Origin: Lachnospiraceae bacterium
GTDB taxonomy: Bacteria; Bacillota; Clostridia; Lachnospirales; Lachnospiraceae
NCBI GenBank assembly: GCA_024684055.1
Contig: JAIKXN010000178.1
Span: 8,741-72,740 of the forward strand
Reading direction: 5' to 3'
Length of the DNA: 64,000 nt
The notes below the pieces were generated by a model. The model was not told the origin of the DNA and searched no databases. It saw nothing but the letters and a program-made list of their open reading frames with translations. The translations under genes and the position numbers were made by a program. Below, piece after piece: positions 516 to 49,508 of the stretch (within the stretch, counting starts at the first letter, position 1; every line of letters starts with the position of its first letter).

Positions 516-1970
516 TTAATTTATCGGTAATTCAAAATAAAAATTTACACCGTTGTTTTTGTTCTCGCATCCGTAATCCATATTGTATGACGTCATAATG
601 GCCTTAACTATCGAAAGTCCGATTCCCGTTCCTCCGTAATCTCTGCTTCGCGCTTTGTCGGCTTTATAGAATTTATCCCAGATATGTTCCATATCTTCGT
701 CCTTAATATTTTCACCGGTATTGAATATATTGATCCTTACCGTATCCTCTTTTTTCTCTATAAATAATTTTATTATCTTTTCTTTTGAACAGTAATGAAT
801 AGCGTTTGAAAGATAATTCTGGATAACTTCTTCGGTCCTGAATTCATCAGACCATACATAGATGCTTTCATCCGCGTTTTCAAATTCAAGATTGATCTCA
901 TTCTGTTTAAGCAAAAGGTTGGATGAAGCGATCTTGTTATTCAGAAGTTCGACAATATCAAACCTTTCGATCTCAAGCTGATTGTTTCCGAATTCAAGTT
1001 CCGAAAGAGACATCAGTTCTTTAACAAGGCGGTTCATTCGGTTGGATTCATCGATGATAACGTCAAGATAATAATTTCTGCTTTCCTCATCATCCATAAT
1101 GCCTTCCTTAAGGCCTTCGGAATAGCTCTGAATAAGCGCAATGGGAGTCTTTAATTCATGAGAAACATTGGATACGAATTCCTTTCTCATGTCTTCCATC
1201 GCATCTCTTTTCTGAAGATCCTGTAAAAGAGCATTGTTTGCACATTTCAATTCGGAAATCGTCTGCTCGAGTTTTTCGGACATGTTGTTTATGTTGTATC
1301 CGAGAATATCAATCTCGTTTATTCCCTTGCAGTCATATTTCGTATCGAATTCAAGATTGGAAACTTTTGAAGAAATTTCGGTAAGTTTTAGAAGCGGCCT
1401 TGTAATCCTGTTGGTGATGATAATAACCGTAGTACAGCCCATAAACATGCCAATAAGACCGACAATTAAAAGAAACTTGTTTGCAATAAGAACTGAATCT
1501 TCGACTGCAACAAGCGCACATCTTATCATGAATTTTTCGTTGTTATAAAGAGTACCCCAGAGTTCAAGATATTTATTGCCCGAGTTCGAATCGTGAACCG
1601 TCTGGAAATGAGAGCCTCCCTCTTTCGAAGCAAGCTGATCAACAAGAAAATTGTTTGAAAGCTGATTGATAAGAGTTTTATCATCAGAGCTGACGGAAGC
1701 AAGCACATTGTTGCTGTTGTCAAGAACAACAACAGAAATGTCGTTTACTTCGCAAAGAATCATTAACGACTGTCTGAATTCAGGCGTCATAAGTTTTTTG
1801 TTCTTACTCGCCTCGTCAAGAAACCTGTATGCATCATTTATATTTCTTTTCTTGTTTAAAAGATAATAACTTTTAAGGAAAAAGAAATTCGCTGCCATAC
1901 AGAGCAAAACGGTTCCGGCAAGAATAAAAATAAATATTAAAGTTAGCTGTTTTTTAATCGAGTGTTTCAA
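516..1970 (-). CDS. Sensor histidine kinase (2 TM, HAMP, HisKA, HATPase_c)
   Basis: H-box NVSHELKTPI, N-box NYLSNAIHY, G2 GGTGIGLSIV, HAMP after the second TM; overlaps the upstream response regulator. Confidence 0.95.
   Translation of the reverse strand: MKHSIKKQLTLIFIFILAGTVLLCMAANFFFLKSYYLLNKKRNINDAYRFLDEASKNKKLMTPEFRQSLMILCEVNDISVVVLDNSNNVLASVSSDDKTLINQLSNNFLVDQLASKEGGSHFQTVHDSNSGNKYLELWGTLYNNEKFMIRCALVAVEDSVLIANKFLLIVGLIGMFMGCTTVIIITNRITRPLLKLTEISSKVSNLEFDTKYDCKGINEIDILGYNINNMSEKLEQTISELKCANNALLQDLQKRDAMEDMRKEFVSNVSHELKTPIALIQSYSEGLKEGIMDDEESRNYYLDVIIDESNRMNRLVKELMSLSELEFGNNQLEIERFDIVELLNNKIASSNLLLKQNEINLEFENADESIYVWSDEFRTEEVIQNYLSNAIHYCSKEKIIKLFIEKKEDTVRINIFNTGENIKDEDMEHIWDKFYKADKARSRDYGGTGIGLSIVKAIMTSYNMDYGCENKNNGVNFYFELPIN
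521..547 (-). promoter_or_regulatory. Candidate sigma28 promoter inside the last codons of the kinase, facing the lipoprotein gene
   Basis: Minus strand TAAA-N15-ACCGATAA; could be a by-product of coding constraints. Confidence 0.35.
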
Positions 1971-3539: not shown

Positions 3540-5147
3540 TTATAACTGAGGACCTGCAGAAACAAGTGCCTTACCTGCATCGTTTGTCTCGTATTTCTTG
3601 AAGTTCTTGATGAATCTTTCAGCAAGATCTTTAGCCTTCTCATCCCATTCGGAAGCGTTGGCATATGTATCACGAGGATCAAGGATTGCAGGATCAACTC
3701 CGGGAAGTTCTGTAGGAACTTCGAAATCGAATACGGGAATCTTCTTTGTAGGTGCTTTGTTAACGTCGCCGTTAAGGATAGCATCGATGATTCCACGAGT
3801 ATCTTTGATGGAGATTCTCTTTCCTGTTCCGTTCCATCCTGTATTTACGAGGTAAGCCTTAGCTCCGCTCTTCTGCATCTTCTTAACGAGTTCTTCACCG
3901 TACTTTGTAGGATGAAGTTCAAGAAATGCCTGTCCGAAGCAAGCAGAGAATGTAGGTGTAGGCTCTGTGATTCCACGCTCTGTACCTGCAAGCTTAGCTG
4001 TGAAACCTGATAAGAAGTAGTACTGTGTCTGCTCAGGTGTAAGGATAGATACGGGAGGAAGTACTCCGAATGCATCTGCTGAAAGGAAGATAACATTCTT
4101 TGCATCGGGACCTGCAGAAATACCGTTAACCTTCTTAACGATGTTTTCGATGTGTTCGATAGGATAAGAAACACGTGTATTTTCTGTTACGGACTTGTCA
4201 GCGAAATCGATCTTTCCGTCTGCAGCTACAGTTACGTTCTCAAGAAGAGCATTTCTCTTGATAGCGTTGTAGATGTCGGGCTCAGAATCCTTGTCAAGGT
4301 TGATAACCTTAGCATAGCATCCGCCTTCGAAGTTGAATACACCGTTGTCATCCCAGCCGTGCTCGTCATCACCGATGAGAAGTCTCTTGGGATCTGTGGA
4401 AAGTGTTGTCTTACCTGTTCCTGAAAGACCGAAGAAGATAGCTGTGTTCTTACCTTCCATATCTGTGTTAGCTGAGCAGTGCATTGAAGCGATGCCCTGA
4501 AGAGGTAAGTAGTAGTTCATCATGGAGAACATACCCTTCTTCATTTCTCCGCCGTACCATGTGTTAAGAATAACCTGCTCACGGCTTGTTGTATTGAAAG
4601 CAACACATGTCTCTGAATTGAGACCGAGTTCCTTATAGTTGTCAACTTTTGCAAGAGAAGCTGTGTATACTACGAAGTTAGGCTCGAAGTTAGCAAGTTC
4701 TTCTTCTGTAGGCTGGATAAACATATTCTTTACGAAATGAGCCTGCCAAGCAACTTCCATGATGAAACGAACAGCCATTCTTGTATCTTTGTTAGCGCCG
4801 CAGAAAGCATCCATAACGAAAAGTCTCTTTCCGTTAAGTTCCTTCTTTGCAAGATCCTTAACGATAGCCCATGTCTCTTCTGTCATAGGATGGTTATCGT
4901 TCTTGTATCCTTCTGTGGTCCACCAAACTGTATCTTTTGAATTAGCATCCATAACAATGTATTTATCTTTAGGTGAACGACCAGTGTAAATACCTGTCAT
5001 AACGTTAACTGTGCCGAGTTCTGTCTCTACACCTTTTTCGAAACCTGTAAGTTCGGGCTTCATTTCTTCTTCATATAAGAATTCATATGAAGGATTGTGG
5101 ATAATTTCGCTGGCATTAATACCATACTTGCTTAAATCGATTGCCAT
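3540..5147 (-). CDS. pckA: Phosphoenolpyruvate carboxykinase (ATP)
   Basis: TGRSPKDK, P-loop [26 protein letters not shown] motifs. Confidence 0.98.
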
Positions 5148-5321: not shown

Positions 5322-7061
5322 CTAAACAAGCGTCTTACATTTGTCCTGATAATCATCAAGCCATTTTACTTCCCTGCCGGTCATTTCATCTCTGAGAAGC
5401 AGTTTTTCATCAAGCGGAACATACGTTAAACATTCAAAACAAAAGAACTTCCCGTCAGCCGTTTCATACTTCTCTTTTACAAGCAAAATGTTCTCAATCC
5501 TGATGCCGTATCTGCCTTCTTTGTAAATACCGGGTTCATCTGAAACAAGCATCCCCGGTTTTAACACGGCATCTCTTCCATATGCGCCCTGTATCCATCT
5601 TATCGCCTGAGGACCTTCATGTACCGATAACATGTAACCGACACCGTGACCTGTTCCGCATTTGTAATCATCTCCCTCTTCCCACATCGGTTCTCTTGCA
5701 AGTATATCGAGATTGATCCCGGTACATCCTTCAATGAAAACCGCATTCATCAAAGCAAGCATGCCTCTGGCGACTCTGGTGTAATCATGTTTCATTTCAT
5801 AAGTCGGTATACCTATCGCAACCGTCCTTGTAATATCGGTCGTTCCGCCCTTCCACTGTCCGCCGGAATCCACAAGATAAAGACTGTTATCAAGTATTGC
5901 ACTGCAGTCATCTTTATATGATTCATAATGCATCATCGCAGCATTAGGACCCGATGCCGATATAGTATCGAACGACAGATCGTAACAATCTTCTTCGGAA
6001 AGTCTCATTTCATCGAGCTTGACCATAAGGTCATATTCCTTTAAAGATGTCACGTCATTATTCCCGATCCATTCAATAAAATCTTTAACAACTTTATTGT
6101 CTTTTCTGTAAGCTTCCCTGAGATTATTTATTTCAGTTTCGTTTTTGATCGATTTCATCATTGAAACCTTACAGTCCGAATTTATAAGATCATAGTTTTT
6201 CTCATTAAGAATATTCGCATATTTGACAGGCATTTTATCAAAAAGGAAACAAGCTTTTTTATTATCGGGAAGGCCTCTTAAAACGCTCTCAAATTCTTCG
6301 TAAAGGGCAACAGAAATACCCTGCTTTTTAAGTTCATTTTTAATCTCATCAAAAACATCATCGGATGTGTCTGAATTCTTAAAAAGAAACAAAAAAGCTT
6401 CATCTTTTGTGATCATCACGTAAGAAAGAGCAACGGGATTGTATCTGATTGCTTTTCCTCTTATGTTGCATATCCACATATTTGAATCAAGTACCGCACT
6501 TAAATAGAAATCCGCATCTGTGTCCGAAAGTGTCTTTTGAACTTTTAAAACTTTTGATTCGCAGGATTCTCCGGTTAAATCATCACTGAGAATTGAAACA
6601 GTGTCGTCAGCTTTTAAATCCGGATAATCTTTATTGAAATACTTTTTGTAAGCATTTAAAAAGACGTAATTTTTGTCATCGAGAGCATTGATTCCGTAAT
6701 TCAGGCACTCTTTGTACGAGAAAATATCGGAAGGGCAGGCAACTGTCTTTCCCTTGTCAGCAAATCCCCTGACATATTCGCGTATCGTGGGGTAACCCGG
6801 CGTACTTAATTTCATAAGCTTTATCGAACCGCCCGACAATTCTTTTTCGGCCTGAATAAAATATCTTCCGTCTGTAAAAAGGCAGGCTTCCTCAAGACCA
6901 ACAGCAAGAAGTCCGTTCGACCCCTTAAAGTTCGAAGCAACACTTCTGAATTTATAATAATCGTTTACATATTCGCTTAAATGAGGATCGCAGTCTTTTA
7001 AAAGAAAAAGATCGTATCCTTTTGTTTTCATCTCATCTCTTATACAGTCTATGAATTCCAT
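5322..7061 (-). CDS. Xaa-Pro aminopeptidase (M24B, aminopeptidase P family)
   Basis: Metal ligands in LVDSGG, TTDITRT, GHGVG..VHEGP, SDEPG, IRIEN; creatinase-like N-terminus FTDGRYFIQA. Confidence 0.95.
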   Translation of the reverse strand: MEFIDCIRDEMKTKGYDLFLLKDCDPHLSEYVNDYYKFRSVASNFKGSNGLLAVGLEEACLFTDGRYFIQAEKELSGGSIKLMKLSTPGYPTIREYVRGFADKGKTVACPSDIFSYKECLNYGINALDDKNYVFLNAYKKYFNKDYPDLKADDTVSILSDDLTGESCESKVLKVQKTLSDTDADFYLSAVLDSNMWICNIRGKAIRYNPVALSYVMITKDEAFLFLFKNSDTSDDVFDEIKNELKKQGISVALYEEFESVLRGLPDNKKACFLFDKMPVKYANILNEKNYDLINSDCKVSMMKSIKNETEINNLREAYRKDNKVVKDFIEWIGNNDVTSLKEYDLMVKLDEMRLSEEDCYDLSFDTISASGPNAAMMHYESYKDDCSAILDNSLYLVDSGGQWKGGTTDITRTVAIGIPTYEMKHDYTRVARGMLALMNAVFIEGCTGINLDILAREPMWEEGDDYKCGTGHGVGYMLSVHEGPQAIRWIQGAYGRDAVLKPGMLVSDEPGIYKEGRYGIRIENILLVKEKYETADGKFFCFECLTYVPLDEKLLLRDEMTGREVKWLDDYQDKCKTLV

Positions 7062-7120: not shown

Positions 7121-7220
7121 TATGCTTTTAAAAATGGTTTTGGTTATGCTGTTAAAAATGGTTTTGGTTATGCTGTTAAAATGGTTTTAGTTATGCTGTT
7201 AAAAATGTTTTCGTATGTTT
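7121..7220. repeat. Intergenic 22-24 bp tandem repeat, 4 copies plus a fragment
   Basis: Consensus TATGCTGTTAAAAATGGTTTTGGT; units start at 7121, 7145, 7169, 7192 (7214 partial). Confidence 0.95.
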
Positions 7221-7473: not shown

Positions 7474-8841
7474 ATGTCTAACAACAAACACAGCGAAATC
7501 ACACCCGAAATAATAAAGCTTGCCGAAAAATCTTATAATAACAGCATTATCGACAATGATTTATTTGTAAAATACGACGTTAAACGCGGTCTTCGCGACT
7601 TAAACGGACGCGGCGTTTTAACCGGGCTCACCCACATATCCGACGTAAGAGCAAATAAAATTGTAGACGGCGAACAGATTCCTTTACCCGGAGAACTGTT
7701 TTACCGCGGATACAATGTAAAAGATCTTGTAAACGGATTTACATCCGAAGACCGTTTCGGTTTTGAAGAAATCTCCTATCTTCTTTTATTCGGAGATCTT
7801 CCTTCAACCAAAGAACTAGAAAAGTTAAAACATATCCTTGCAGATTACAGAGAACTTCCCACAGGATTCGTTCGCGACATCATCATGAAAGCTCCGAGCA
7901 AGGACATGATGAACACGCTTGCAAGAAGCGTTCTGACTTTATATTCATATGACGATCGTGCAGACGACACTTCCATTCCCAATGTATTAAGACAGTGTCT
8001 GCAGTTGATCGCACTCTTCCCTGAATTCGCAATTTACGGATATCAGGCTTACAGTCATTATCACGACGGCAATTCGCTTTTCATTCACAGACCCGTAAGC
8101 GAACTTTCAACAGCGGAAAATATTCTGACTCTTTTAAGAGCAGACAGTAAATATACGGCACTTGAAGCCAAACTTTTAGACCTTGCACTTGTACTTCACA
8201 TGGAACACGGCGGCGGTAACAATTCAACATTTACCACCCATGTCGTATCTTCCACTCTTACCGATACGTATTCAGCTATCGCAGCTGCACTCGGTTCCTT
8301 AAAAGGCCCCCGTCACGGCGGCGCAAACATCAAGGTTGTACAGATGTTTGAAGAGATGAAAAGAGAAGTCAGAGACTGGAATGACGATGATGAAGTAAGC
8401 GTATATTTAAGAAAACTTCTTCACAAGGAAGCCTTCGATCATCAGGGTCTCATTTATGGTGTCGGTCATGCCATTTATTCGACAAGCGATCCCAGAGCCT
8501 GCATCTTCAAAAAATATGTTGAAATGCTCTCCAAGGAAAAAGGACTTGAAAACGAATTCGCTCTTTACTCAAAAGTCGAAGAACTCGCTCCAAAGATCAT
8601 CGCATCCGAAAGAAAGATGTATAAAGGTGTCTGCATAAACGTCGACTTCTATTCGGGCTTCGTTTATAACATGCTCTCACTCCCGAGCGAACTCTTTACT
8701 CCGATGTTTGCCATTGCAAGAATCGTCGGATGGTCTGCTCACAGACTCGAAGAGCTCTCAAATAACGGAAAGATCATACGTCCTGCCTATAAACCGATCA
8801 TGGAAGACTTAACATACATTCCCATGGAAAAAAGAGTGTAA
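7474..8841 (+). CDS. gltA: Citrate synthase (citrate/2-methylcitrate synthase family)
   Basis: LHMEHGGGNNST, GPRHGGAN, YGVGHAIY, NVDFYSG and RIVGWSAH motifs. Confidence 0.93.
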   Translation: MSNNKHSEITPEIIKLAEKSYNNSIIDNDLFVKYDVKRGLRDLNGRGVLTGLTHISDVRANKIVDGEQIPLPGELFYRGYNVKDLVNGFTSEDRFGFEEISYLLLFGDLPSTKELEKLKHILADYRELPTGFVRDIIMKAPSKDMMNTLARSVLTLYSYDDRADDTSIPNVLRQCLQLIALFPEFAIYGYQAYSHYHDGNSLFIHRPVSELSTAENILTLLRADSKYTALEAKLLDLALVLHMEHGGGNNSTFTTHVVSSTLTDTYSAIAAALGSLKGPRHGGANIKVVQMFEEMKREVRDWNDDDEVSVYLRKLLHKEAFDHQGLIYGVGHAIYSTSDPRACIFKKYVEMLSKEKGLENEFALYSKVEELAPKIIASERKMYKGVCINVDFYSGFVYNMLSLPSELFTPMFAIARIVGWSAHRLEELSNNGKIIRPAYKPIMEDLTYIPMEKRV

Positions 8842-8893: not shown

Positions 8894-10237
8894 TTATTTC
8901 GGTACTATATTTTTTAAATCATAAGTAAGCGTCATGTATTTATCGTCAGAAACATCCTGCCAGGTTGTAATGATTCTCTGAGCAATCTGACGCGAATCTT
9001 CTTCATTTGCGTTCATAAGAAGCGTTACATACTGGAAAGAAGAATACTGCGTGGTAACATCTCCCATTCGTAAAGAAACAACGATTGCTCTTTCCACCTG
9101 CTGCATCGCTTCTTCAAGCTGTTCCGTGGTAAGTTTTTCAGGTCCTGAATGAGTAAGCGTAAAAAGAATCATCCATACTGTCTGATTCGATCTTGCGATC
9201 GTACGCTGAACAAAATGTACGATGTTTTTGAAGCCTTCATATTCGACTCTGAGAGCTCCGTTTTCATAATTCTTCTCTTTCATAAATCCTTCGAGTCTCG
9301 ATAAATCCTGTTCGGAATTAAAGTTCTCGATTGAAGAATTAAGATACTCTTCTCTCTGCTTGTAGTAATGATAATTGTCTTTACCGTTCTGCTTTACGTA
9401 ATAAAGTGCTTTGTCGGCTCTGTGATAAAGCATCTGGAAATCGATACCGTCATCGGGACAAACGGCAATACCGATTGAAACCGTGGGATTGTATGAAAGT
9501 TCCGTCTCATCCCTCATGTCATTGTGAACACGGGTTAATATGAGATCACAGTAGGAATTGATTTCATCGTCCGTATATTCACCTTTAAGGAAAACCGCAA
9601 ATTCATCTCCGCCGATTCTTGCCGCAATGTCTCTCGGTCCGACATTATTCTGTAGGATCTGAGAAAACTTGCAAAGGATATTATCGCCGAAAACATGTCC
9701 GTACGAATCATTGACAATTTTAAAATTATCAACGTCCATAAGGAAAAATACGCCTTTATTTTTGGACATGAAATATTTTTCGATGTCATCCTCGATGAAT
9801 TTTCTGTTCCAGATTCCTGTCAGAGGATCCTTTTTGGCTGAATTTGAAAGATTTTTTCTTAAGTCTTCGATCTGAAGAATCTTTTCTATTCTCGAAAGCA
9901 TAATCTCAGGTTCAAAGGGTTTTAAAATAAAATCCATCGCACCCATCTTTAAGCCTTTAATCTCGCTTTCCCTTTTGTCATCAACAGTCAGAAAAACAAC
10001 CGGAATATTGGAAGTCTCTGAGTTGGCTTTGATATGTTCCAGTGTCTCATATCCATCCATGCCGGGCATTCTGACATCAAGCAAAATAAGATCGGGTTTG
10101 GCTTTTTTCAGAAAATCCAAAGCCATTGCACCTGATTTTGCCATGGAAAGCTGATAGTTGTCTTTAAGAACTTCAGCTGCAAGTTTTAAGTTTGTAGTTA
10201 CGTCGTCGACGATAAGAATATGTTTCTTACGGTCCAT
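8894..10237 (-). CDS. Response-regulator diguanylate cyclase (REC-GGDEF-degenerate GGDEF)
   Basis: REC domain (LILLDVRMP), DPLTG, DVDNFKIVNDSYGH, RIGGDEF; C-terminal GGDEF-like fold with SSFQY in place of GGDEF. Confidence 0.92.
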   Translation of the reverse strand: MDRKKHILIVDDVTTNLKLAAEVLKDNYQLSMAKSGAMALDFLKKAKPDLILLDVRMPGMDGYETLEHIKANSETSNIPVVFLTVDDKRESEIKGLKMGAMDFILKPFEPEIMLSRIEKILQIEDLRKNLSNSAKKDPLTGIWNRKFIEDDIEKYFMSKNKGVFFLMDVDNFKIVNDSYGHVFGDNILCKFSQILQNNVGPRDIAARIGGDEFAVFLKGEYTDDEINSYCDLILTRVHNDMRDETELSYNPTVSIGIAVCPDDGIDFQMLYHRADKALYYVKQNGKDNYHYYKQREEYLNSSIENFNSEQDLSRLEGFMKEKNYENGALRVEYEGFKNIVHFVQRTIARSNQTVWMILFTLTHSGPEKLTTEQLEEAMQQVERAIVVSLRMGDVTTQYSSFQYVTLLMNANEEDSRQIAQRIITTWQDVSDDKYMTLTYDLKNIVPK

Positions 10238-10283
10238 ACTTTTCCCCTGTAGTTTTAGTAATTTCTGAACTGAATAATTTTAA

Positions 10284-11774
10284 TTACAGGCTGAGAAAAT
10301 CAGCGACTTCTTTTTTCATATCTGCTTTTTCACAAACATTTTTGTGTAAAATTTCAGCGTTTCTGATATCTTTAACGGCTTTGGGTATTTCGATACCCGA
10401 AATCTCATTTAATCTGTCTACAAGAACAAAATCTTCCTCATCGTGTTCTGTTGAATCGATCGCCGAAAGAACGGCTCTTGTAAATTTATAAGGTGAAGCT
10501 GTTGAAACTATAACGGTTTCGTTATCATCATCAACTGTTTTTCTGTATTCTTCGTATACGGCACTTGCAACAGCTGTATGTGTATCGAGAACATATCCTG
10601 TCTTGTCGAATACATTTTTGATCCTGTCACTTACCTGCTTCTCACTTGCAAAACCGCCGATGAAACTTTCGTCGATAAACTGCTTCATTTCTGCAGTAAC
10701 TTCATAACTTCCCTTTTCCTTAAGGTCATTCATAAGTTTCTTGTTTAATTCGCTGTTTCCGCCGCAAGAAAGATATACAAGTCTTTCAAAGTTGGAAGAA
10801 ATAAGAATATCCATCGAAGGAGAAGTTGTAAGTATGAAATCTCTGTTTCTGTCGTAAACCGAAGAATTAAAGAAATCATAAAGAACTTTATTCTCGTTTG
10901 AAGCACATATAAGTTTGTTAACGGGAAGTCCGATGCATTTTGCAAAATAACCTGCAAGGATGTTTCCGAAGTTACCGGTGGGAACAACGAAATTGATAAG
11001 ATCTCCTTCTTCGATCTTGCCGTTCTTTAAAAGGTTCGCATATGCATATACGTAATATACAACCTGAGGAATAAGACGGCCGATATTGATAGAATTGGCA
11101 GAAGAAAATCTGTATCCCGCTTTGTTAATCTTCTCGTTAAATTCTTTGTCTGTAAATATATTCTTTACACCTGTCTGAGCATCATCAAAGTTGCCCTTGA
11201 TACCTACAACCTTAACATTGTCTCCGACCTGTGTTACCATCTGCTTTTCCTGAATCGCGGAAACTCCGCCCTTCGGATAAAATACGATGATCTTAACGCC
11301 TTCAACACCTGCAAATCCGGCCAAAGCCGCTTTACCGGTATCTCCCGATGTAGCAGTAAGAATAACAATATCTTCTTTGATATTGTTTTTCTTTGCCGAT
11401 ACTTTCATAAGATAAGGAAGAATCGAAAGTGCCATATCCTTGAAAGCGATTGTCGATCCGTGGAAAAGTTCAAGATAATATGCTTTGTCCACATAAGACA
11501 TTACAACCGTATCTTCCGTATCAAATTTGGAATCGTATGCATTATCTATACAATACTTTAATTCTTCTTCCGAAAAATCAGAGAAGAATAATTTCATTAC
11601 TTCATAAGCAATTCCCTTGTAATCCATTCCGGATAATTCCTCAAGACTCTTTTCAAGCGAAGGAAACTGTTCAGGTACAAACAAACCTCCGTCATCCGCA
11701 ATACCTTTTGCGATTGCGTAAGACGCGCTTACACGTTTGGAATCATCTCTCGTACTCTTGTATAATATTTCCAT
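10284..11774 (-). CDS. thrC: Threonine synthase
   Basis: LELFHGSTIAFKD (PLP lysine), ATSGDTG, SANSINIGRL, VPTGNFGN. Start moved to ATG 11774, which follows a GGAG RBS. Confidence 0.97.
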   Translation of the reverse strand: MEILYKSTRDDSKRVSASYAIAKGIADDGGLFVPEQFPSLEKSLEELSGMDYKGIAYEVMKLFFSDFSEEELKYCIDNAYDSKFDTEDTVVMSYVDKAYYLELFHGSTIAFKDMALSILPYLMKVSAKKNNIKEDIVILTATSGDTGKAALAGFAGVEGVKIIVFYPKGGVSAIQEKQMVTQVGDNVKVVGIKGNFDDAQTGVKNIFTDKEFNEKINKAGYRFSSANSINIGRLIPQVVYYVYAYANLLKNGKIEEGDLINFVVPTGNFGNILAGYFAKCIGLPVNKLICASNENKVLYDFFNSSVYDRNRDFILTTSPSMDILISSNFERLVYLSCGGNSELNKKLMNDLKEKGSYEVTAEMKQFIDESFIGGFASEKQVSDRIKNVFDKTGYVLDTHTAVASAVYEEYRKTVDDDNETVIVSTASPYKFTRAVLSAIDSTEHDEEDFVLVDRLNEISGIEIPKAVKDIRNAEILHKNVCEKADMKKEVADFLSL

Positions 11775-12044
11775 AGCTGCTCCTAAAACAAAAATATACA
11801 AACCGCTTTTTTAACCGGCTTTATTGATATTGTTATTTTTTTTACAAAGTTGTTATTATTATAACATAATATTTCTTCATGATAAAGATTTAATAAATTA
11901 GTTATAAATGATATTATTTTTGTACGGGAATTACAAGATTAATTTGTAATTTCAATCGATTTTTTCAAATTATACGACGTTTTTTTCAATTTTGCGCTAA
12001 ACAATTTTGTTAACATATAGGATTTTTTCGTCTTTTATAAATTT

Positions 12045-12869
12045 ATGGCAAAAAAATCAAAAATGAACGGATATCGGAATCTGCTTATGAAGTCCAAAGG
12101 TATATTCAAAACATATAAAAAAGACAATACTCCCTACTATCGCGTATTCGTTACCAGAAAAGGAAAACACATTTCTCTTGGTTCTTATGAAAAAGAAAGC
12201 GATGCCTGCGAATGTTATAATGATGCCCTTAATATCCTTGAAGATAAAAATATTTCTTACGATGATTACAGGGACTCATACAAAATCTCATTCGATAAAT
12301 TTATCGTTCTGGTGAATTTCAGGGACAGCGGAATCTATATATCAAATCCGATTTATTTAAGACCGAATTTCTTTTATTATTTTCTGGATAAAGATACGAT
12401 TCTTAAATTCGATAAAGACGATCTTTTTTACTATTCAAAACATAAAATCTGCAAAAGAGGCAATCATCTCTTCTGCTATGAATACGGAAACCAGATAAGC
12501 ATTAATGAAAGATACAATATCGGCTCATATGCCGTTGTCGATAAAGATTACAGATTCATTAACGGCGATAAAACCGATTACAGATATTCAAACATAGAAA
12601 TACTTAATTCTTTTCATGGTGTAAGGAAAATAACCGAAGGCGCCAAGACGTTCTATGAGGCAAAAATTCATGTAAACGGCTATATAAAGATCGGCGAATT
12701 CAACAGTGAGATTGAAGCTGCAATAGCATATAACAAAGCCGTCGATCTTTTAAAGAAAAAATATGATAAAAACTTCGTTCAGAATTTCCCGGATCTTAAC
12801 GCAAAGGAATACGCATCAATCTATTCGGAAACAGAAATATCTCCAAGAATATATGAGATGATAAACTGA
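12045..12869 (+). CDS. AP2-domain DNA-binding protein with a central degenerate HNH-like motif (AP2-HNH*-AP2)
   Basis: Two AP2-like segments (YYRVFVTRKGKHISLGSYEKESDACECYN and FHGV..FYEAKIHVNGYIKIGEFNSEIEAAIAYNKA) flank RFINGDKTDYRYSNI, which resembles DHINGDKLDNRRSNL. Confidence 0.75.
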   Translation: MAKKSKMNGYRNLLMKSKGIFKTYKKDNTPYYRVFVTRKGKHISLGSYEKESDACECYNDALNILEDKNISYDDYRDSYKISFDKFIVLVNFRDSGIYISNPIYLRPNFFYYFLDKDTILKFDKDDLFYYSKHKICKRGNHLFCYEYGNQISINERYNIGSYAVVDKDYRFINGDKTDYRYSNIEILNSFHGVRKITEGAKTFYEAKIHVNGYIKIGEFNSEIEAAIAYNKAVDLLKKKYDKNFVQNFPDLNAKEYASIYSETEISPRIYEMIN

Positions 12870-13050
12870 TAATCCGAAATGATGAAGCAACATCCGAAAT
12901 GATGGAACTAACATCCGGAATGATAAAACAACATCCGAAATGACGAAACAAACATACGAAATGATAAACTGAACATCTGAAACAATAAATAAATATCTGA
13001 AACAATAAATAAATATCTGAAATAATTATATATATCCAAATATAAACAAA
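12848..13050. repeat. Degenerate 19-21 bp tandem array, about 10 units, starting inside the AP2 gene's last codons
   Basis: Unit starts at 12870, 12891, 12912, 12932, 12953 (core CATCCGAAATGA), then 12974, 12994, 13014, 13033 (core TATCTGAAA). 12848-12869 matches 12951-12972 at 19/22. Confidence 0.92.
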
Positions 13051-13053
13051 AAC

Positions 13054-13079
13054 GACGGACCGTCTTTCGACAGCCCGTC
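13054..13079 (-). terminator. Rho-independent terminator of the flotillin gene
   Basis: Minus-strand RNA GACGGGCUGUC-GAAA-GACGGUCCGUC pairs fully using two G-U pairs, followed by a U tract. Confidence 0.85.
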
Positions 13080-13136
13080 TGTTTATTTGAAAATCTCTGA
13101 ATATTTTCCGAGTAACTTTTGAAAATCTCTATTCAA

Positions 13137-14627
13137 TTACTCTGTAACTTCCTTGAAATCTTCTTTTACTTCTTCTTTGCCGGTTTCTGCAGCAGATTTT
13201 GCATTATTTTCTGAAGCGTTTCTTGCTGCCGAATAAGCTACACCACCGAGTGCACCGGAAAGTAATGTTTTGATATCGATACCGAGACCCTGTGTAAGTC
13301 CTTCGGAAATCTGAGTGGTTGAATTTACGATATCGGATACCATCTTTGCAGAATTTCCTTCACCGTACATTGTGATCTTATCAACACTCGAAAGAGGTTT
13401 TGCAACATTTTCCGCAATCTGAGGAAGCACTGCGAAATACATTTCCAAAATGGAAGCTTCCTTCATCTTTGCCTGAGCAAGAGCCTTCTTCTCGATACCT
13501 TCTGCTTCAGCGATCGCTTTTGCTCTAATCGCTTCAGCTTCAGCAATACCTTTAACTTTAATTGCTTCAGCTTCCTGCTCTGCAGCATACTTGGCTGCAT
13601 CAGCCTGAGCACGCATCGCTTCTGCTTCCTGTTTCTTACGATAGAGTTCAACGTCAGCCATCTGCTGTGCTTCGTATTTGTCAGCATCAGCTTTCTTTCT
13701 GATTGTAGCAGCAAGTTCCTGTTCCTTAACGGAAGCTTCCTTCTGCTTGAGTTCAATCTCTCTTTCCTGCTTTGCAATATCAGCATTTGCAGAAGCAACT
13801 TCGATCGACTTACGCTGTTCCTCTTCCTGAATACGATAAGCCGCATCAGCTTCAGCCTTCTTGATATCAGCTTCTCTCTTAAGTTCAGCCTGTTTGATTG
13901 CAAGCTGGTTATTTCTTTCGGCAATATCCGTATCAGCAGCAACCTGAGCTTCGTTTGCAAGCTGTTTGGCTTTAGCCTGTTCAATGGCAACGTCTTTTTC
14001 AGCCTGAGCTCTCGCAATGGATGCACTCTTCTGAATCTGTGACATATTGTCCTGACCGAGGGCATTGATGAGGTCGTTCTTATCTTCGATTCTCTGAATG
14101 TTGCATGAAATGATCTCGATACCGAGGTTGTTCATATCACTCTGAGCTTTGGTCTGAACTTCATCACCGAATTTCTTACGATCATTACATAATTCCTTAA
14201 GCGAAACTGTACCAATGATTTCACGCATGTTACCCTGAAGAGAATCTGTAAGGGCTTCTGCGATCTGCTTCTCGTTCATGTTAAGGAAGTTCTTCATCGC
14301 AAGTTTGATTCCCTTTTCATCAGTCATCACACGAACCTTTGCAATCGCGTCGATATCAACACCGATGAAGTCAAGTGTGGGAATGTAACCGTTTGTCTTA
14401 ATATCGATAGACATCTGCTTTACCAAAAGCATATCTTTTCTTTCAAGAAAAGGAAGTTTGATTCCTGCTCTACCGATCAGTACTTTAGGTTCCTTTTTAA
14501 AACCTGAGATGATGTACGCAGTATCGGGTGGAGCTTTAACATAACCTGACGCAATTATTATAATAATAAGTGCAAAAAGAACCAGTGCCGCAACTGCAGC
14601 CGCGCAAATAATTGTTTCAAATGGCAT
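13137..14627 (-). CDS. Flotillin/SPFH-domain membrane protein
   Basis: N-terminal TM, SPFH domain (GRAGIKLPFLE, LQGNMREIIG) and an Ala/Glu/Lys-rich flotillin coiled coil. Confidence 0.93.
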   Translation of the reverse strand: MPFETIICAAAVAALVLFALIIIIIASGYVKAPPDTAYIISGFKKEPKVLIGRAGIKLPFLERKDMLLVKQMSIDIKTNGYIPTLDFIGVDIDAIAKVRVMTDEKGIKLAMKNFLNMNEKQIAEALTDSLQGNMREIIGTVSLKELCNDRKKFGDEVQTKAQSDMNNLGIEIISCNIQRIEDKNDLINALGQDNMSQIQKSASIARAQAEKDVAIEQAKAKQLANEAQVAADTDIAERNNQLAIKQAELKREADIKKAEADAAYRIQEEEQRKSIEVASANADIAKQEREIELKQKEASVKEQELAATIRKKADADKYEAQQMADVELYRKKQEAEAMRAQADAAKYAAEQEAEAIKVKGIAEAEAIRAKAIAEAEGIEKKALAQAKMKEASILEMYFAVLPQIAENVAKPLSSVDKITMYGEGNSAKMVSDIVNSTTQISEGLTQGLGIDIKTLLSGALGGVAYSAARNASENNAKSAAETGKEEVKEDFKEVTE

Positions 14628-14656
14628 TTTGAATTCCTCCTTTTTTGTTTGAGAAA

Positions 14657-14685
14657 ATTATAGCAAAATAAAAGGTACATAACAA
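14657..14685 (-). promoter_or_regulatory. sigmaA promoter of the flotillin gene
   Basis: TTGTTA-N17-TATAAT with a TGn extension. Confidence 0.65.
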
Positions 14686-14771
14686 TATATAAAATAATGA
14701 CAATATACGGTCATATTTCACTTTTACGGAGAAAATAACAGCAATTAATCGCTAAGACATTAAAAAAATAA

Positions 14772-14811
14772 GCACGAATTCGGTCGTAGATTTAAATAAC
14801 CGAATTCGTGC
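14772..14811 (-). terminator. Terminator of the uppS...polC transcript
   Basis: Perfect 13-bp inverted repeat GCACGAATTCGGT/ACCGAATTCGTGC followed by TTATTTTTTT on the minus strand. Confidence 0.8.
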
Positions 14812-14843
14812 ATATATTAATGTTAAATCGATATCTATGTATT

Positions 14844-17800
14844 TTACAGATCGAAAATGCTGAGCTGATCCGATTTGGGCAGGTCTTTGATGATACCGAC
14901 TTCAACAAGTTTGTTGCATACGGATTCACCGATCCTGCATTTCTTCATCATGTCTGCCTGTGAAGTGAATGAACCTTCCCTGCAGCCCTCAACGATATTT
15001 TTGGCAGCGGTATCGGCAATACCGTCAATACTCTTTAACGAAGGCATAAGCTTTCCGTCTATAACCTGGAATTTATCCGGCTTGACAAGTTTTAAGTCAA
15101 TCGGCATGAATTCAAATCCTCTGACATAAAACTCTTCTACAAGTCTCATATCGTCAAGACTGTCTTCTTCCGCATTTGACATTTTCGGAAGGCTCATGAG
15201 GAACTGCATGTTCTGTCTTAAAGTCTGAAGTCCCTTACACATTGTTTCATAGGAAAACTTATTTGCTCTTATCGAAAAATATGCGGCATAATATGCAAGA
15301 GGATAATAAACCTTATAATATCCTACTCTCCAGCCCATTGTAACGTAAGCGGCAGCGTGAGCTTTCGGGAACATGTACTGAATCTGTTCGCATGACCAGA
15401 TATACCATTCGGGTACGTTCTGGGCACGCATATCTTCTTTCCATTTTTCCCATTTGTCATCTACTTTATGCTTAGCTACTTTACCTTTACGAACATTTTC
15501 CATAATGGTAAATGCTTCGGAACTTTCAACACCCATTTTTATAAGATAAGTCATGATATCGTCACGAGTCGAAATAACGCCGGTAATATCGGCTTTTCCT
15601 TCTTCGATAAGTGTTTCGGCATTTTTATCCCACACACCGGTTCCGTGAGTCAGACCTGAAATACGGATAAGGTCGGTAAATGTCTGAGGCTTGGTTTTAA
15701 CAAGAACATTCATGGTATTTCTTGTACCGAATTCAGGTATACCCATGCATCCCAAAACAACACCGTCAATATCATTAGGCTCGTATCCGAGTTCAGTCGT
15801 TGTCTGGAAAATGCTCATAACTCTTTTGTCATCAAGAGGAATATCCCTGCAGTTCGTTCCCGTTGCATCTTCAAGGAATTTCATCATGGTGGGATCGACA
15901 TGTCCTAAAATATCCAGCTTCAGAAGGTTTGAGTCGATGTCATGATACTCGTAATGAGTTGTAATAACATCCGTTTCCATATCGTTTGCAGGTTTCTGAA
16001 TTGCAGTGAATTCATATATTTCTCTTCCGTGAGGAAGAACTACGATACCGCCCGGGTGCTGACCTGTCGTTTTTCTTACACCTTCAACACCTTTGGCAAT
16101 ACGTGCAATTTCGCAGTTTCTCTTGTGTATTCCCTTCGACTCATAAAAATCATGAACATAGGCAATACTTGTTTTATCGGCAATACCGGACATTGTTCCG
16201 GCATGGAATGTATGTCCTTTTCCGAATAAAACTTCTGTATATCTGTGAGCTTTACCCTGATATTCACCCGAGAAGTTTAAGTCGATATCAGGCTCTTTGT
16301 CTCCCGAGAATCCGAGGAAGGTCTGGAAAGGAATATCAAATCCCGCTTTTTCAAGCTTTTCTCCGCACACGGGACAATTCTTATCGGGAAGGTCACATCC
16401 TGCCATACAGGCAAAACTCTTGATTAAATCCGATTCGAAATCACTGTAGTGGCAGTTCTTGCAGTAATAATGCGCATGCAGAGGATTAACTTCCGTAATG
16501 CCTGACATCGTGGCAACGAAAGACGATCCTACAGAACCTCTCGAACCCACTAGATATCCGTCTTCTTCGGATTTTAAAACCAGATTTCTGGCGATCATGT
16601 AAAGCACGGCATAACCGTTTTCAATAATACCGTTAAGTTCTGTTTCGAGTCTGTCTTCAACGTCTTTGGGAAGATTCTCTCCGTACATTTTATGAGCGGT
16701 TTCATAGCAGCAGTTTCTTAAATTCTCTTCGGAATTTTCAAGTTCGGGCGGGCATTTTTCTTTGGAAGTCGGACAGACATCATCACACATATCCGCAATC
16801 ATGTTTGTATTCGTAATAACGATTTCCTCGGCCTTAACCGCTCCGAGATAATCGAACTCCTCAAGCATCTCCTGCGTTGTATGAAGATAAAGAGGAGGCT
16901 GCTTGTCATCAGGCGATTCTTCCGTATCGGGCTTTGCGGTCTTTTTGTTAAACTTGTTCATGTGAACGATCTCTCTGTAGATCGCATCTTCGGGATTGAT
17001 AAAATGAGAGTCGCCCGTAGCGCATACGGGTTTTCGGAAATGTTCGCCGAGTTTGACGATATATCTGTTTAATTCTCTTAGATCATCATCCGTCTGAATA
17101 TTCTTATGCATCGGTTTATCGGAGTATTTCATAAACTCATTGTTACCGATCGGCATTACTTCGAGATAGTCATAAAAATCAACAATACGTGCTATTTCCT
17201 CATCGGATTTTTCTTCAAGAATAGCTTCCATAAGTTCGCCAGCTTCACAGGCAGATCCGATAATAAGACCTTCTCTGTATTTCTGAAGGATCGATCTCGG
17301 AATCTTTGGTGATCTATGGAAATAATTAATGTGCGATTCCGAAACAAGTCTGTTCAAATTTATTCTTCCGGTCTCGTTCTTTACAAGGATCGAAACATGA
17401 TATGCTCTCTTTTTTCTTATCGAATCGGGTGAATTCTTCACAAATTCGTTTAACTCTTTTAACGTAAAGACTTTCCGGCCGATAAGCATGTGTGTAAATT
17501 CAGCAAAGATCTTGGCTGTGACATCGGCATCATTTACTGCTCTGTGATGCTCTTCCTTGCCGAATTTGAATTTGAGCTTGTGAGCGACAGCTTCAAGGTT
17601 AAACCTCGACGAATCCTTAAGAAGTGCTCTTGCGATTATGATCGTATCTATCCAGACTTTGTCGAATATAATATCAAGTCTTCTGCAATTTTCTTTTATG
17701 AAAGAAACATCAAATTTTGCATTGTGAGCCACAAGTACGCAGCCTTCGCAAAACTCCATAAACTTCGGTAATACTTCAGAAATATCGGGTGCATCGCAGA

Positions 17801-25975: not shown

Positions 25976-27184
25976 TTATAAATTATCAAAGAAAGCCGTG
26001 GGTGAAACCTCAGCATATTTCTGAGAACATTTTCCTTCTATTACCGCACCGTTGTTTATCTGAACGTTCTTACAGTCAATATCTCCGAGAACTTTTGCTT
26101 CCGATTCAAGGATAACGGGACCGTTAACATCAATCTTGCCCTTTACCGCTCCTGCGATCTGAGCTTCGTTGGATTCGATGTCGCCGATCAAAACCGCATC
26201 AGCAGTAATAATAATTCCGTTATCGGATTTAACGTTTCCTCTGATCTTTCCGGAGCTGAGCGATACAACAAGCCCTTCTACGTTTCCGATTACAGTTCCG
26301 GTAATAAGAACTTCACCGTTTGCTTTAACATCGCCTTCAACGTAACCGTCGATCTGTGCGGAACCTGAAGCTTCGATTGAACCTTTTACGGAAGTTCCTT
26401 CGCAAATAAGTGTAAGATTGTCGTAATATTCGTCTTTTTTTGTATCCGCAAAAAGTGATGAAGCGGATGCGTTTGTTTCGTTAGTCATATCTTCTTCTGT
26501 CTCATTGCCTGATTTGTTATCGTCAGACTCTTTTATGTTTTCTGTATTTTCGGATGAGTTATTATCTTTGTTGTTAGAACCGGATTCGATATAATTTGTT
26601 ACAGTTTCCTGATCTGATCTGGAATTCTGATTTGATGCGGTATTCTGATTCGTTTCGGAACCGTTATTTGTTACGGAATTCTGATTTGATGCAGTATTCC
26701 GATTCGTTTCGGAACCGTTATTTGTTACGTTATTCTGATTCGTCTGTAAATTCCGGCCGGCATTCGCATTACCGGAAGATGAATTATTGCCGTTTTCCGA
26801 AGACTGGTTGTTATCAGAGGATTCTGCCCCTTCATCAGATACCGAAGTATCGGTATTCTGAACCGCCTCTGATGTTTCTTTATTCGCGAATACATCTCCA
26901 ACATCTTCAAACGTTTCGTTTTTGAAGGAAGGCTTTTCGGAAAAATCATCTGCCGAAACAGGCTTATCATCTATGCCGTTTAAAATATTCTGTATTTCTT
27001 TTTCAAGATTCTCGTTAGGTTTCTTTTCCCTTCTGAATTTCGAAGTTCTTCTTGAAGAATCGAAAGTAGAAACATCATCTTTATAATGTTCTTTTGATAA
27101 AGCAATATCTTTTTCAGCTTTCTCGTCCGTAAGTTCATTTACAGCCGAAGCAAGATCTTCTTTTAAATCATTGAAAAATCCCAT
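25976..27184 (-). CDS. Bactofilin (polymer-forming cytoskeletal protein) with a long low-complexity N-terminus
   Basis: C-terminal beta-helix repeats (TLICEGTSVKGSIEASGSAQIDGYVEGDV...GAVIEGKC) after an Asn/Ser/Glu-rich region. Confidence 0.9.
   Translation of the reverse strand: MGFFNDLKEDLASAVNELTDEKAEKDIALSKEHYKDDVSTFDSSRRTSKFRREKKPNENLEKEIQNILNGIDDKPVSADDFSEKPSFKNETFEDVGDVFANKETSEAVQNTDTSVSDEGAESSDNNQSSENGNNSSSGNANAGRNLQTNQNNVTNNGSETNRNTASNQNSVTNNGSETNQNTASNQNSRSDQETVTNYIESGSNNKDNNSSENTENIKESDDNKSGNETEEDMTNETNASASSLFADTKKDEYYDNLTLICEGTSVKGSIEASGSAQIDGYVEGDVKANGEVLITGTVIGNVEGLVVSLSSGKIRGNVKSDNGIIITADAVLIGDIESNEAQIAGAVKGKIDVNGPVILESEAKVLGDIDCKNVQINNGAVIEGKCSQKYAEVSPTAFFDNL
26621..26742. repeat. 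In-frame 54-bp tandem repeat (about 2.3 copies) in the bactofilin gene
   Basis: Units at 26621, 26675, 26729 (partial); encode VTNNGSETN(R/Q)NTASNQNS. Confidence 0.95.
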
Positions 27185-30586: not shown

Positions 30587-31393
30587 TTAATCTTCATTAA
30601 TGTTCATCATACCGCACAAATATTTGGAAATCGTTTCAAAATCCGCATCTACGGGGATGTTGTAAGAACCTACGCGCAGTCTCTTATCATAACCGTTTTC
30701 GCAGAGATATTTATTGAATTCCGTTTCACTCTTTGCAAGTCCGGCATTCATTACCGAGTTTGAAACCGTTTCGGAACTTTGACCTGATTTGACTTCGACC
30801 AAAACCGTTTTTACATTTCCGGTCGTTTTGTCTGATGCAGGCTTCGTGTCACCGGTATCTGAATCCTTGTCTGTGTCATCGGTATTTTTATCCTTATCGG
30901 AATTCTGTCCGTCTGTATTCTTGTCTGTATCGGAATTCTGTCCGTCCGTATTCTTGTCCGTGTCCGAATTCACTTTAGCAGAATCGTTACCGTCTTCTTT
31001 GTTATCAGAAGAAGTATCAGTTTGCGAATCTGTATTGTTTCCGGTATTTTTGTCATCTCCAAAAAATTTGTTCTTATCCTCGCCTGATCCGGATGAAGCG
31101 CTTTCAGTCTGTTTTTCTCCCCCGTTACCTGTAACGGAAGAATCCTCGTTTTTTGAAGTATCGGATGAAGTTTCTTTATCTTTATCATCAGAAGCACTGA
31201 CTTTAGCGGATTCTCCCATATCGTTTGCAAGAGGAGCCGTAAGAGTCGTGCTTTCCGTCATTCCGAGTTCTTTCGCTCTTTTAATTACGTACTCATCGGA
31301 AACTTTATTGGTCATTTTCCCTGATATTATCAATACAAGGGCCGTAACGATAATACCGATACCAAGCCCTTTTAAATATGCTTTATAATTCAT
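30587..31393 (-). CDS. Membrane-anchored protein with a low-complexity linker and a C-terminal YceG/MltG N-terminal-like subdomain (no catalytic domain)
   Basis: N-terminal TM, Asp/Ser/Thr-rich linker, then VEVKSGQSSETVS..AGL..EFNKYL..GYDKRLRVGSYNI. Confidence 0.75.
   Translation of the reverse strand: MNYKAYLKGLGIGIIVTALVLIISGKMTNKVSDEYVIKRAKELGMTESTTLTAPLANDMGESAKVSASDDKDKETSSDTSKNEDSSVTGNGGEKQTESASSGSGEDKNKFFGDDKNTGNNTDSQTDTSSDNKEDGNDSAKVNSDTDKNTDGQNSDTDKNTDGQNSDKDKNTDDTDKDSDTGDTKPASDKTTGNVKTVLVEVKSGQSSETVSNSVMNAGLAKSETEFNKYLCENGYDKRLRVGSYNIPVDADFETISKYLCGMMNINED
30895..30971. repeat. In-frame 33-bp tandem repeat
   Basis: Units at 30895, 30928, 30961 (partial); encode (T)DKNTDGQNSD. Confidence 0.9.
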
Positions 31394-48260: not shown

Positions 48261-49508
48261 TTAATTTATTATCTCAGTAATCCTAATACCAAAACTTTCT
48301 TCGATTACTACTACTTCCCCTTTGGCAACAAATTTACCATTTACCAGAACATCAATAGGTTCACCTGCGATCTTGTCAAGTTCTATGATTGTTCCGGGTG
48401 CAAAATCAAGAATATCCGCAATGGACTTCTTGGTACGTCCGAGTTCTACAGTAACCTCAAGCGGTACGTCCATAATAAGATTTATATTCTCCGGCGTATT
48501 GGCCGATACCGTAGGCTGTGTGAAAGTCTGGAACTGAGCAGGCGCCACATTCACGTTTCCGCCCGGGAACGGAGGTGCCTGATATCCCATCGGAGGTGCC
48601 TGGTAACCCATGGGCGGTGCCTGATATCCCATCGGCGGCACCTGATATCCCATTGGCGGTGCCTGATATCCCATCGAAGGATCGGGATAAGGATTCTGAG
48701 GCATCGGCTGAGGTGCGCTCTGAGGTGCAGGTTCGGGAGCAGGTGCCGGTGCAGGTGCTTCCTCTTTTTGAGCTTCGCCGACCTTCTCGGAATCAGCTAC
48801 CTGATTGTTCATGAATATCTGATACAGTTCTCTCGCAAAATCAAGAGGATATAACTGAAGGATAGTTGAATCAATCAGATCTCCGATCTGCATCCTGAAC
48901 GAAATGCTTACAAACGTTCCCGCAAGGAATCCTGAAAATTCTTCACCTTTGGCAAAATCGTTAATATCGATAAGTGATGCCTCAGGCGGAGAAATATCGA
49001 TCATCTTTCCAAGCATTGACGAAAGACTCGTTGCCGATGAACCCATCATCTGGTTCATGGCTTCCGATATCGCACTCAGATGAAGTTCTCCGAGTTCTCC
49101 TTCTATATTTGTTCCATCGCCTCCCATCATGAGGTCGGTAATGATTTTTACATCGTCTTCTTTAAGAATTAATATGTTAGATCCGTCAAGTCCGACTGTA
49201 TAGTTGATTTTGATGAATACACAGGGTCTGTCATATCTTCCTATAAGTTCATCCCATTTAACTATAGTAACCGTAGGTGTCGTAATATCTACTCTTCTGT
49301 TAACAAGCGAATAAAGAGTCGTTGCGCTTGTTCCCATCGATATATTAGCTACTTCACCGATTGCATCTTTTTCAATATCCGATAAAGCTTCTTCACCGGA
49401 AGAATCCGAAGCGGCGGCGGGTTCGGGATCTGCGGAATTATTGTCAGATAAATCCATGCCCGCCAAAAGGGCATTTATTTCATCCTGGGATAAAATACCA
49501 CCATCCAA
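48261..49508 (-). CDS. fliY: Flagellar motor switch phosphatase FliY
   Basis: CheC-like ExxN motifs (EVAN, EAMN) plus a C-terminal SpoA/FliN domain (IMDVPLEVTVELG). Confidence 0.96.
   Translation of the reverse strand: MDGGILSQDEINALLAGMDLSDNNSADPEPAAASDSSGEEALSDIEKDAIGEVANISMGTSATTLYSLVNRRVDITTPTVTIVKWDELIGRYDRPCVFIKINYTVGLDGSNILILKEDDVKIITDLMMGGDGTNIEGELGELHLSAISEAMNQMMGSSATSLSSMLGKMIDISPPEASLIDINDFAKGEEFSGFLAGTFVSISFRMQIGDLIDSTILQLYPLDFARELYQIFMNNQVADSEKVGEAQKEEAPAPAPAPEPAPQSAPQPMPQNPYPDPSMGYQAPPMGYQVPPMGYQAPPMGYQAPPMGYQAPPFPGGNVNVAPAQFQTFTQPTVSANTPENINLIMDVPLEVTVELGRTKKSIADILDFAPGTIIELDKIAGEPIDVLVNGKFVAKGEVVVIEESFGIRITEIIN
48571..48675. repeat. In-frame 21-bp repeat x5 in the fliY linker
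   Basis: Units at 48571, 48592, 48613, 48634, 48655 encode MGYQ(A/V)PP. Confidence 0.97.

Follow-up and report, generated by a model that had tools for sequence, protein, structure and literature searches.

The tandem array that follows the AP2-like gene of the window (the whole stretch of Lachnospiraceae DNA that was analysed, 64,000 nucleotides in length) is best explained as a neutral, young, lineage-specific minisatellite, born of a duplication that straddled the stop codon of the gene, and with no detectable function (probability of about 0.8). The array itself is well beyond chance and is private to the window's lineage; slippage as the mechanism, the order of events, and the neutrality of the array are what we infer. 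The functional readings of the array, even taken together, are unlikely, and neutral slippage, one of the hypotheses put forward in an earlier note on this DNA, is the one that the evidence favours.

Structure of the array

Ten head-to-tail units, each of 19–22 bp, fill positions 12850-13053 between the AP2-like gene and the flotillin terminator. The array takes in the final 20 nt of the AP2-like gene, from 12850, and ends at the terminator (13053), and the number and size of the units given in the earlier note (about ten, contiguous, 20–21 bp) are borne out by both TRF and the unit matrix. TRF reports two arrays, one at 12858-12982 (period 21, 6.1 copies, 75–80% matches, with an alternative reading as a 41-bp dimer) and the other at 12975-13026 (period 20, 2.6 copies, 96% matches); the repeat finder gives the same register of units. 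The best TRF score of the region is 145 (130–145), whereas none of 500 dinucleotide-preserving shuffles scores above 93; the stretch is 52% A.

All units are given on the plus strand. U0 (12850-12871, TATATGAGATGATAAACTGATA) comprises the last codons of the AP2-like gene, its TGA stop codon, and the following TA, and is the in-gene member of the repeat (it is also taken in by the repeat family D1, 52 nt). The next five units, U1 (from 12872, ATCCGAAATGATGAAGCAAC), U2 (from 12892, ATCCGAAATGATGGAACTAAC), U3 (from 12913, ATCCGGAATGATAAAACAAC), U4 (from 12933, ATCCGAAATGACGAAACAAAC), and U5 (from 12954, ATACGAAATGATAAACTGAAC), form the older 20/21-bp subfamily (12872-12974, consensus ATCCGAAATGATGAAACAAC), with lengths of 20, 21, 20, 21, and 21 bp; the spacing of repeat family D2 is 20, 21, 20, 21. 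The younger 20-bp subfamily (12975-13033) consists of two identical units, U6 (from 12975) and U7 (from 12995), both ATCTGAAACAATAAATAAAT, and of U8 (from 13015, ATCTGAAATAATTATATAT), and corresponds to the second TRF array. The last unit, U9 (13034-13053, ATCCAAATATAAACAAAAAC), is degenerate and is followed by the terminator hairpin.

Random pairs of matched composition, which served as the null for the unit comparisons, show on average 11.4 matches, with a 99th percentile of 15. The pairwise matches are 16–18 of 20–21 positions within U1-U5 and 16–20 positions within U6-U8, and U9 matches U3-U5 at 16 of 20. U0 and U5 are alike at 17 of 21–22 positions, also above the 99th percentile, and the claim that the array was seeded from the 3' end of the AP2-like gene itself stands. 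The likeness between the last 22 nt of the gene and positions 12951-12972 was correctly given as 19 of 22, and so was the single-base difference between the units at 12974 and 12994. Divergence is greatest at the two edges of the array, in U0 (inside the gene) and U9 (beside the terminator).

The units had also been described as a conserved core with a variable tail, and this description holds in part. Eight of the 21 columns of U1-U5 are variable, and six of the eight fall inside one 7-column stretch (two in the other 14 columns), in agreement with the description; the scan p for this clustering is, however, only ~0.05, before correction for the choice of scan width, which makes the pattern only marginally non-random. 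A weak constraint on AACATCCGAAATGA could be one reading of the clustering. The tails, 7–9 nt in length, are variants of one another and have the look of drift and not of acquired spacers, as had been supposed.

Neighbouring genes and the common terminator

The AP2-like gene (12087..12869, plus strand) encodes a protein of 260 aa from the ATG at 12087, with the TGA stop codon at 12867-12869. Its longest open reading frame spans 12045-12869 (274 aa), and the ATG at 12087 is the likely true start because homologues begin at the position of M15. The family comprises more than 4600 homologues, mostly in Lachnospiraceae, where the gene is conserved; in most of the 81 orthologous loci it lies downstream of, and divergent from, thrC, which is on the opposite strand. 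Words upstream of the gene, such as AGAAATATTT and TGTATAAA, are common to 30–40 of 88 loci of the family and may represent a conserved promoter or operator.

The protein of the window gives no Pfam match at E ≤ 1, and no Pfam family covers the whole protein. The profile of 30 family members, on the other hand, aligns with the two AP2 domains in Arabidopsis WRI1 (E 5e-6), and PF00847 is matched by six of the 30 homologues (best E 1e-5). The AlphaFold model (AF2, pLDDT 92) shows a module of three strands and a helix at each end of the protein: strands 6-10, 16-24, and 27-34 with helix 37-52 in the first, and strands 179-184, 187-195, and 199-205 with helix 208-225 in the second. Such a three-stranded antiparallel sheet packed on one helix is the AP2 fold, and the top Foldseek matches in the PDB are plant AP2 domains, namely TEM1 (probability 1.00, with a weak E of 7e-3) and WRI1 (probability 0.66, with a weak E of 3e-2). 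The layout is that of two AP2-like domains placed around a central domain without a match. The protein resembles AP2/ERF domain proteins in its two sheet-plus-helix modules, the WRI1 profile match, and the TEM1 fold match, and differs from them in that it falls below Pfam reporting and has the unmatched central domain. The AP2 label that the gene had received is acceptable on the basis of the WRI1 profile, the PF00847 matches among homologues, and the predicted fold, and the gene probably encodes an AP2-like, putative DNA-binding protein. Most phage and bacterial AP2 proteins carry an HNH nuclease, unlike the protein of the window, which has no nuclease domain; the PHROG match named 'HNH endonuclease' covers the AP2-like stretch only.

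The array is followed by a G+C-rich terminator hairpin (13054-13079) that is common to both convergent genes and is called on the minus strand by the terminator scan. The hairpin is stronger on the minus (flotillin) strand, where it includes two G-T pairs that are mismatches on the plus strand; the plus-strand fold is a hairpin with two mismatches, followed by TGTTTATTTG. It is kept in five relatives (L111, L083, L084, L085, and L001), and the layout in the relatives is a stop codon, an A-rich run, and the hairpin. U9 is at the same time the A-rich terminator lead-in that the relatives carry directly after the stop codon. On the far side of the hairpin lies the flotillin gene (Band_7/Flot; 13137..14627, minus strand), an open reading frame assigned through the Pfam families of its syntenic orthologues and facing the AP2-like gene in convergent orientation. 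Besides the AP2-like gene, the array has as neighbours flotillin, thrC, and polC, which make up a context of chromosomal core genes.

Comparison with related loci

Relatives of the AP2-like locus were gathered by an alignment-based scan of contigs (a scan with the single protein found only one). The metagenome contig L111 encodes a protein 91% identical to the AP2-like protein and is collinear with the window over 9654-12856 and 13034-15367, at 86–91% DNA identity. Between these two blocks the window has 177 bp (12857-13033) and L111 only 19 bp: the contig reads ...IYELIRESTIHI with the stop codon, then TACAAAAAC, and then the same hairpin as in the window. The gap between the AP2-like gene and a downstream flotillin gene, 267 bp in the window, is 128 bp in L083 (the same as L112), 54 bp in L084 (the same as L114), and 82 bp in L085, with no repeat in any of the three; L085 shows the full gene order of GGDEF regulator, thrC, AP2-like gene, flotillin, and polC. 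The array is likewise absent from L001 and L082. Among 81 more distant orthologous loci, 78 have no noncoding array within 300 bp downstream of the gene.

The three exceptions, L017, L019, and L080, have units of 33/66, ~40, and 87 bp, respectively, unrelated to each other and to the units of the window. Three of 81 compares with ~0.7 expected from the rate in all sequence, a reference that is mostly coding DNA and therefore not a fair test. The earlier note had proposed to look for a downstream array in orthologues; its absence from L111, from the other close relatives, and from 78 of the 81 distant loci makes the array a gain in the window's own lineage. The locus thus differs between close relatives in its length and in the presence of the repeat, as minisatellites/VNTRs do.

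The three downstream arrays of the distant loci are each of a different kind. In L017 (Butyrivibrio sp. VCD2006) the array lies within a dispersed element, two copies of which are present in the locus (630-870 and 4815-5115); each copy encloses a different 33-bp tandem array and is bounded by long inverted ends (CCCCTCATCCG...CCTTCCCCCCAAGGGGAAGG / CCTTCCCCCTTAGGGGGAAGGTGCCCGAAGGGCGGATGAGGGG), so that the element looks MITE- or REP-like with a variable repeat interior. L019 carries an A-rich degenerate array with a period of ~40 bp (4769-4930) downstream of the orthologous gene, the last 15 nt of which (TACAAAGTGCAACAA) are found again ~106 bp further on, with 14 of 15 positions matching. In L080 an 87-bp unit is repeated 2.4 times (1900-2128) directly after the stop codon of the orthologous gene, with a small palindrome, GCAAACTTGTTTGC, in each unit. 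Two upstream arrays were set aside as unrelated to that of the window: the one in L056 is inside an open reading frame and has a heptad-like period of 21 bp, and the one in L069 looks like a coding 24-bp repeat.

Occurrence of the core elsewhere

In the 64-kb window, outside the array, the core is matched with up to two mismatches 40 times (40.4 expected), and exact or one-mismatch copies are found almost only inside the array. The check for dispersed repeats likewise found no other copy of the array within the window. A search of the tails against phage and plasmid sequences had been suggested; searches of phage and plasmid collections with the whole array region gave no match, and tails of 7–9 nt are too short for a meaningful search.

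A pattern of two cores 8–11 nt apart was scanned through 185,579 genomes, one per species. With 596 Gb, two strands, four gap lengths, and 20 fixed plus two two-fold bases, about one match is expected under uniform composition; 25 were found, scattered over unrelated phyla, and most of them are coding repeats or repeats with just two copies (a heptad repeat in Paenibacillus and a 42-bp repeat in Verrucomicrobiaceae are examples). The idea that these matches form a family of arrays was rejected, as only one, in Oribacterium, is comparable to the array of the window, and none is near an AP2-like gene.

The Oribacterium array (L096, Oribacterium sp. oral taxon 078, NZ_GG729935.1, 497-690) is noncoding and consists of about nine 20-bp units (TTATCCGRAATGATRYGCYN), with a 13-nt core and the 20-bp period in common with the units of the window. 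It lies directly against the stop codon of a minus-strand LysR-type gene (671..1597), the last 19 nt of which are matched by the unit. Relative to its seeding gene it runs the other way from the array of the window, and it has no AP2-like neighbour. The likeness of the cores is tentatively attributed to the design of the search pattern; a motif truly in common is the less likely reading.

The window contains other tandem repeats as well. A second noncoding array at 7121-7211 (24 bp, 3.9 copies, 92% matches, TATGCTGTTAAAAATGGTTTTGGT) is found in the divergent gap between the open reading frames 5322..7061 (minus strand) and 7474..8841 (plus strand), and so in a promoter region. The repeats at 13499-13574, 26609-26740, 30882-30971, and 48570-48680 (periods of 33, 54/18, 33, and 21 bp, respectively) lie inside long open reading frames (flotillin and three others) and are presumably coding repeats.

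Assembly support and copy number

The window apparently derives from a low-abundance organism of a gut metagenome, with a depth of ~3–6 in the public run X1, and it could be asked whether all or part of the array is an artefact of the metagenome assembly. The independent Logan assembly of X1 reproduces positions 12798-12990 without a difference, which shows that U0-U6 are not such an artefact. In the distal part, a single low-depth X1 contig (depth 6) has AACTGAAC joined directly to 12995 and so is short of one 20-bp U6/U7 unit relative to the window, and no other contig spans U6-U8 for comparison. The array is not a case of identical repeats collapsed or expanded in assembly, since its units differ from one another; within the U6-U8 tract, moreover, no repeated string exceeds 28 nt, which is less than a 31-mer, and assembly of the tract should be unambiguous. 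On this evidence an artefact is scarcely likely. For the same reason (28 nt being less than a 31-mer) the deficit of one unit in X1 is more probably a true length difference than a graph ambiguity, and the contig gives a hint of a difference in copy number, which may be a copy-number polymorphism or a difference of assembly; the comparison relies on this one contig, no other strain having been found.

Searches for a function of the array

The first hypothesis of the earlier note has the adjacent AP2-like protein binding to the array, in autoregulation or a centromere-like process; titration would be a further role, and a site would recur at every second helical turn. In favour of it, the product of the gene, with its two AP2-like domains, is a probable DNA-binding protein, the period of 20–21 bp corresponds to two helical turns, and the conserved columns of U1-U5 cluster marginally. 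The protein family, however, is present in thousands of Lachnospiraceae, yet the array is missing at the 91%-identical orthologue and at all the other close relatives. The core word is found neither in the promoter and upstream region of the gene itself nor in the 88 orthologous promoters, where the conserved words (AGAAATATTT and TGTATAAA) are quite different; the array stands 3' of the gene; and the loci elsewhere that share the core have no AP2-like gene nearby. Binding by the AP2-like protein is, as far as sequence can tell, very unlikely, and the lack of an array in orthologues is what the earlier note had itself named as speaking against the idea.

A role as RNA within the 3' UTR of the gene, in the form of unit-length pieces, of a sponge for a protein or an sRNA, or of a stability element, is highly improbable, and the processed RNA that had been suggested received no support. 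From its location between the stop codon and the common terminator, the array is probably included in the transcript of the gene, but its plus-strand fold is no better than that of shuffles (z −0.62). The Rfam scan of 11000-14000 gave no family, only a chance-level match to an L20 leader over the terminator. The array is not conserved in any relative, and a repeat-spacer system would need longer and less similar units.

The CGGAUG motifs of the minus strand had been regarded as possible CsrA-type binding sites. On the minus strand, three units contain UUUCGGAUG and one contains UUCCGGAUG, but the minus-strand terminator (hairpin and T-run) precedes the array, and flotillin transcripts should therefore end before reaching it. 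Folding of the minus strand does not surpass that of shuffles (z +0.44) and offers no hairpins presenting GGA, so that the motif is a CGGAUG without a hairpin loop; there is no promoter-like excess, and the relatives lack the array. CsrA/RsmA-titrating RNAs have their own transcript with many GGA motifs in hairpin loops, features that were not found here, and the Rfam scan gave no match to them. The chance that these motifs are CsrA-type sites is close to negligible.

It can also be imagined that the array is a newborn cis-element, caught in one lineage at its origin. It would then act as a decoy or as an operator for the AP2-like protein, or else as a part of the 3' UTR that alters the fate of the mRNA. 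The sole hints in this direction are the marginal clustering of conserved columns and the core in common with the Oribacterium array, and the probability of such an element is very small. In more general terms, duplications straddling a stop codon could be a recurrent source of new 3' elements: they are seen in the window, at the Oribacterium LysR-type gene, and at the flotillin gene of L111, and less directly in L019.

Proposed origin and growth of the minisatellite

The neutral minisatellite would have started from a short direct repeat with a spacing of ~21 bp at the very end of the AP2-like gene, the counterpart of which can still be seen in the sister lineage L111. In that contig two copies of the 8-mer GAATCTAC, with a spacing of 21 bp, sit exactly where the AP2-like gene ends, which is the homologous spot. 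A short direct repeat at such a spacing is the usual substrate of slippage duplication, and the GAATCTAC pair of L111 is plausibly such a substrate, or a proto-repeat. The likeness between the units of the window and these two segments of L111 is weak but detectable (14–15 of 20 positions, 95–99th percentile of the null).

Replication slippage, or unequal exchange between the repeats, would then have duplicated a 20–21 bp segment straddling the stop codon. A duplication of this kind would leave the first copy, the open reading frame, and the stop codon intact, and the extra copies would land in the untranslated gap before the common terminator, where they would be tolerated. With the stop codon retained in the first copy, and the protein therefore unchanged, the array can begin inside the gene.

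The unit matrix suggests growth by further slippage in at least two waves. The first would have produced the older subfamily, U1-U5, the units of which are now 75–85% alike, partly as a 41-bp dimer; duplication of such a dimer is suggested by the alternation of the unit lengths (20, 21, 20, 21). The second, recent wave would have given the 20-bp subfamily U6-U8, with two of its copies identical. If the transcript of the AP2-like gene reaches the common terminator, as the layout in the relatives suggests, the array would add ~180 nt of A-rich 3' UTR.

The convergent gap between the AP2-like and flotillin genes seems prone to small duplications. A 32-bp tandem duplication at 13086-13130, adjoining the flotillin stop codon, contains TTTGAAAATCTCT exactly twice (repeat family D5), and a different, 34-bp duplication in L111 (3395-3445) repeats the segment with the flotillin stop codon, CAGTTACTCTGTAACTT. 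Unrelated arrays that echo the 3' end of a gene are those of Oribacterium, abutting the LysR stop codon, and of L019, ~106 bp downstream.

In itself the array matters little. It illustrates cleanly the birth of a minisatellite from a short direct repeat at the end of a gene, and it shows why such repeats can start inside a gene harmlessly, with the stop codon kept in the first copy. The pair of AP2-like gene and thrC, in which a widespread double AP2-like protein is encoded beside thrC, is arguably a more interesting lead than the array.

Comparison with known repeat systems

With CRISPR arrays the array has in common, superficially, the alternation of a conserved part with a more variable one. 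CRISPR repeats are ~23–50 bp long, with unique spacers of similar size and usually cas genes. In the window, by contrast, the conserved part is 11–14 nt and the variable part 7–9 nt, far below these sizes, with whole units of only 19–22 bp, mutually similar tails, and no adjacent cas-like open reading frame.

Plasmid iteron and par arrays are likewise formed by direct repeats of ~20 bp at a two-helical-turn phase, and the array of the window stands, as they do, beside a gene for a putative DNA-binding protein. It differs from them in its chromosomal context, without a rep or par gene as neighbour and without similarity to plasmids, and it does not travel with the AP2-like protein family, so that co-inheritance with a binding protein is not observed.

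The MIRU-type repeats of Mycobacterium are tandem units in short intergenic gaps and can overlap the stop codon of a flanking gene, as the array of the window does. MIRUs measure 40–100 bp, and a single genome has them scattered over many loci; the unit described here is 20–21 bp long, and its core forms an array nowhere else in the 64-kb window.

The closest likeness is to bacterial minisatellites/VNTRs of the kind used in MLVA. Apart from the origin of the array, which comes from an uncultured gut Lachnospiraceae and has no typing context, the correspondence extends to several features: head-to-tail copies of a 10–100 bp unit, beyond chance, in an intergenic gap; degenerate edge units with recently homogenised internal copies; and presence in one lineage with absence from close relatives. 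Variation of copy number between strains, typical of VNTRs, is at most hinted at by the one-unit difference in the X1 contig. The array could serve as a strain marker for this uncultured gut Lachnospiraceae.
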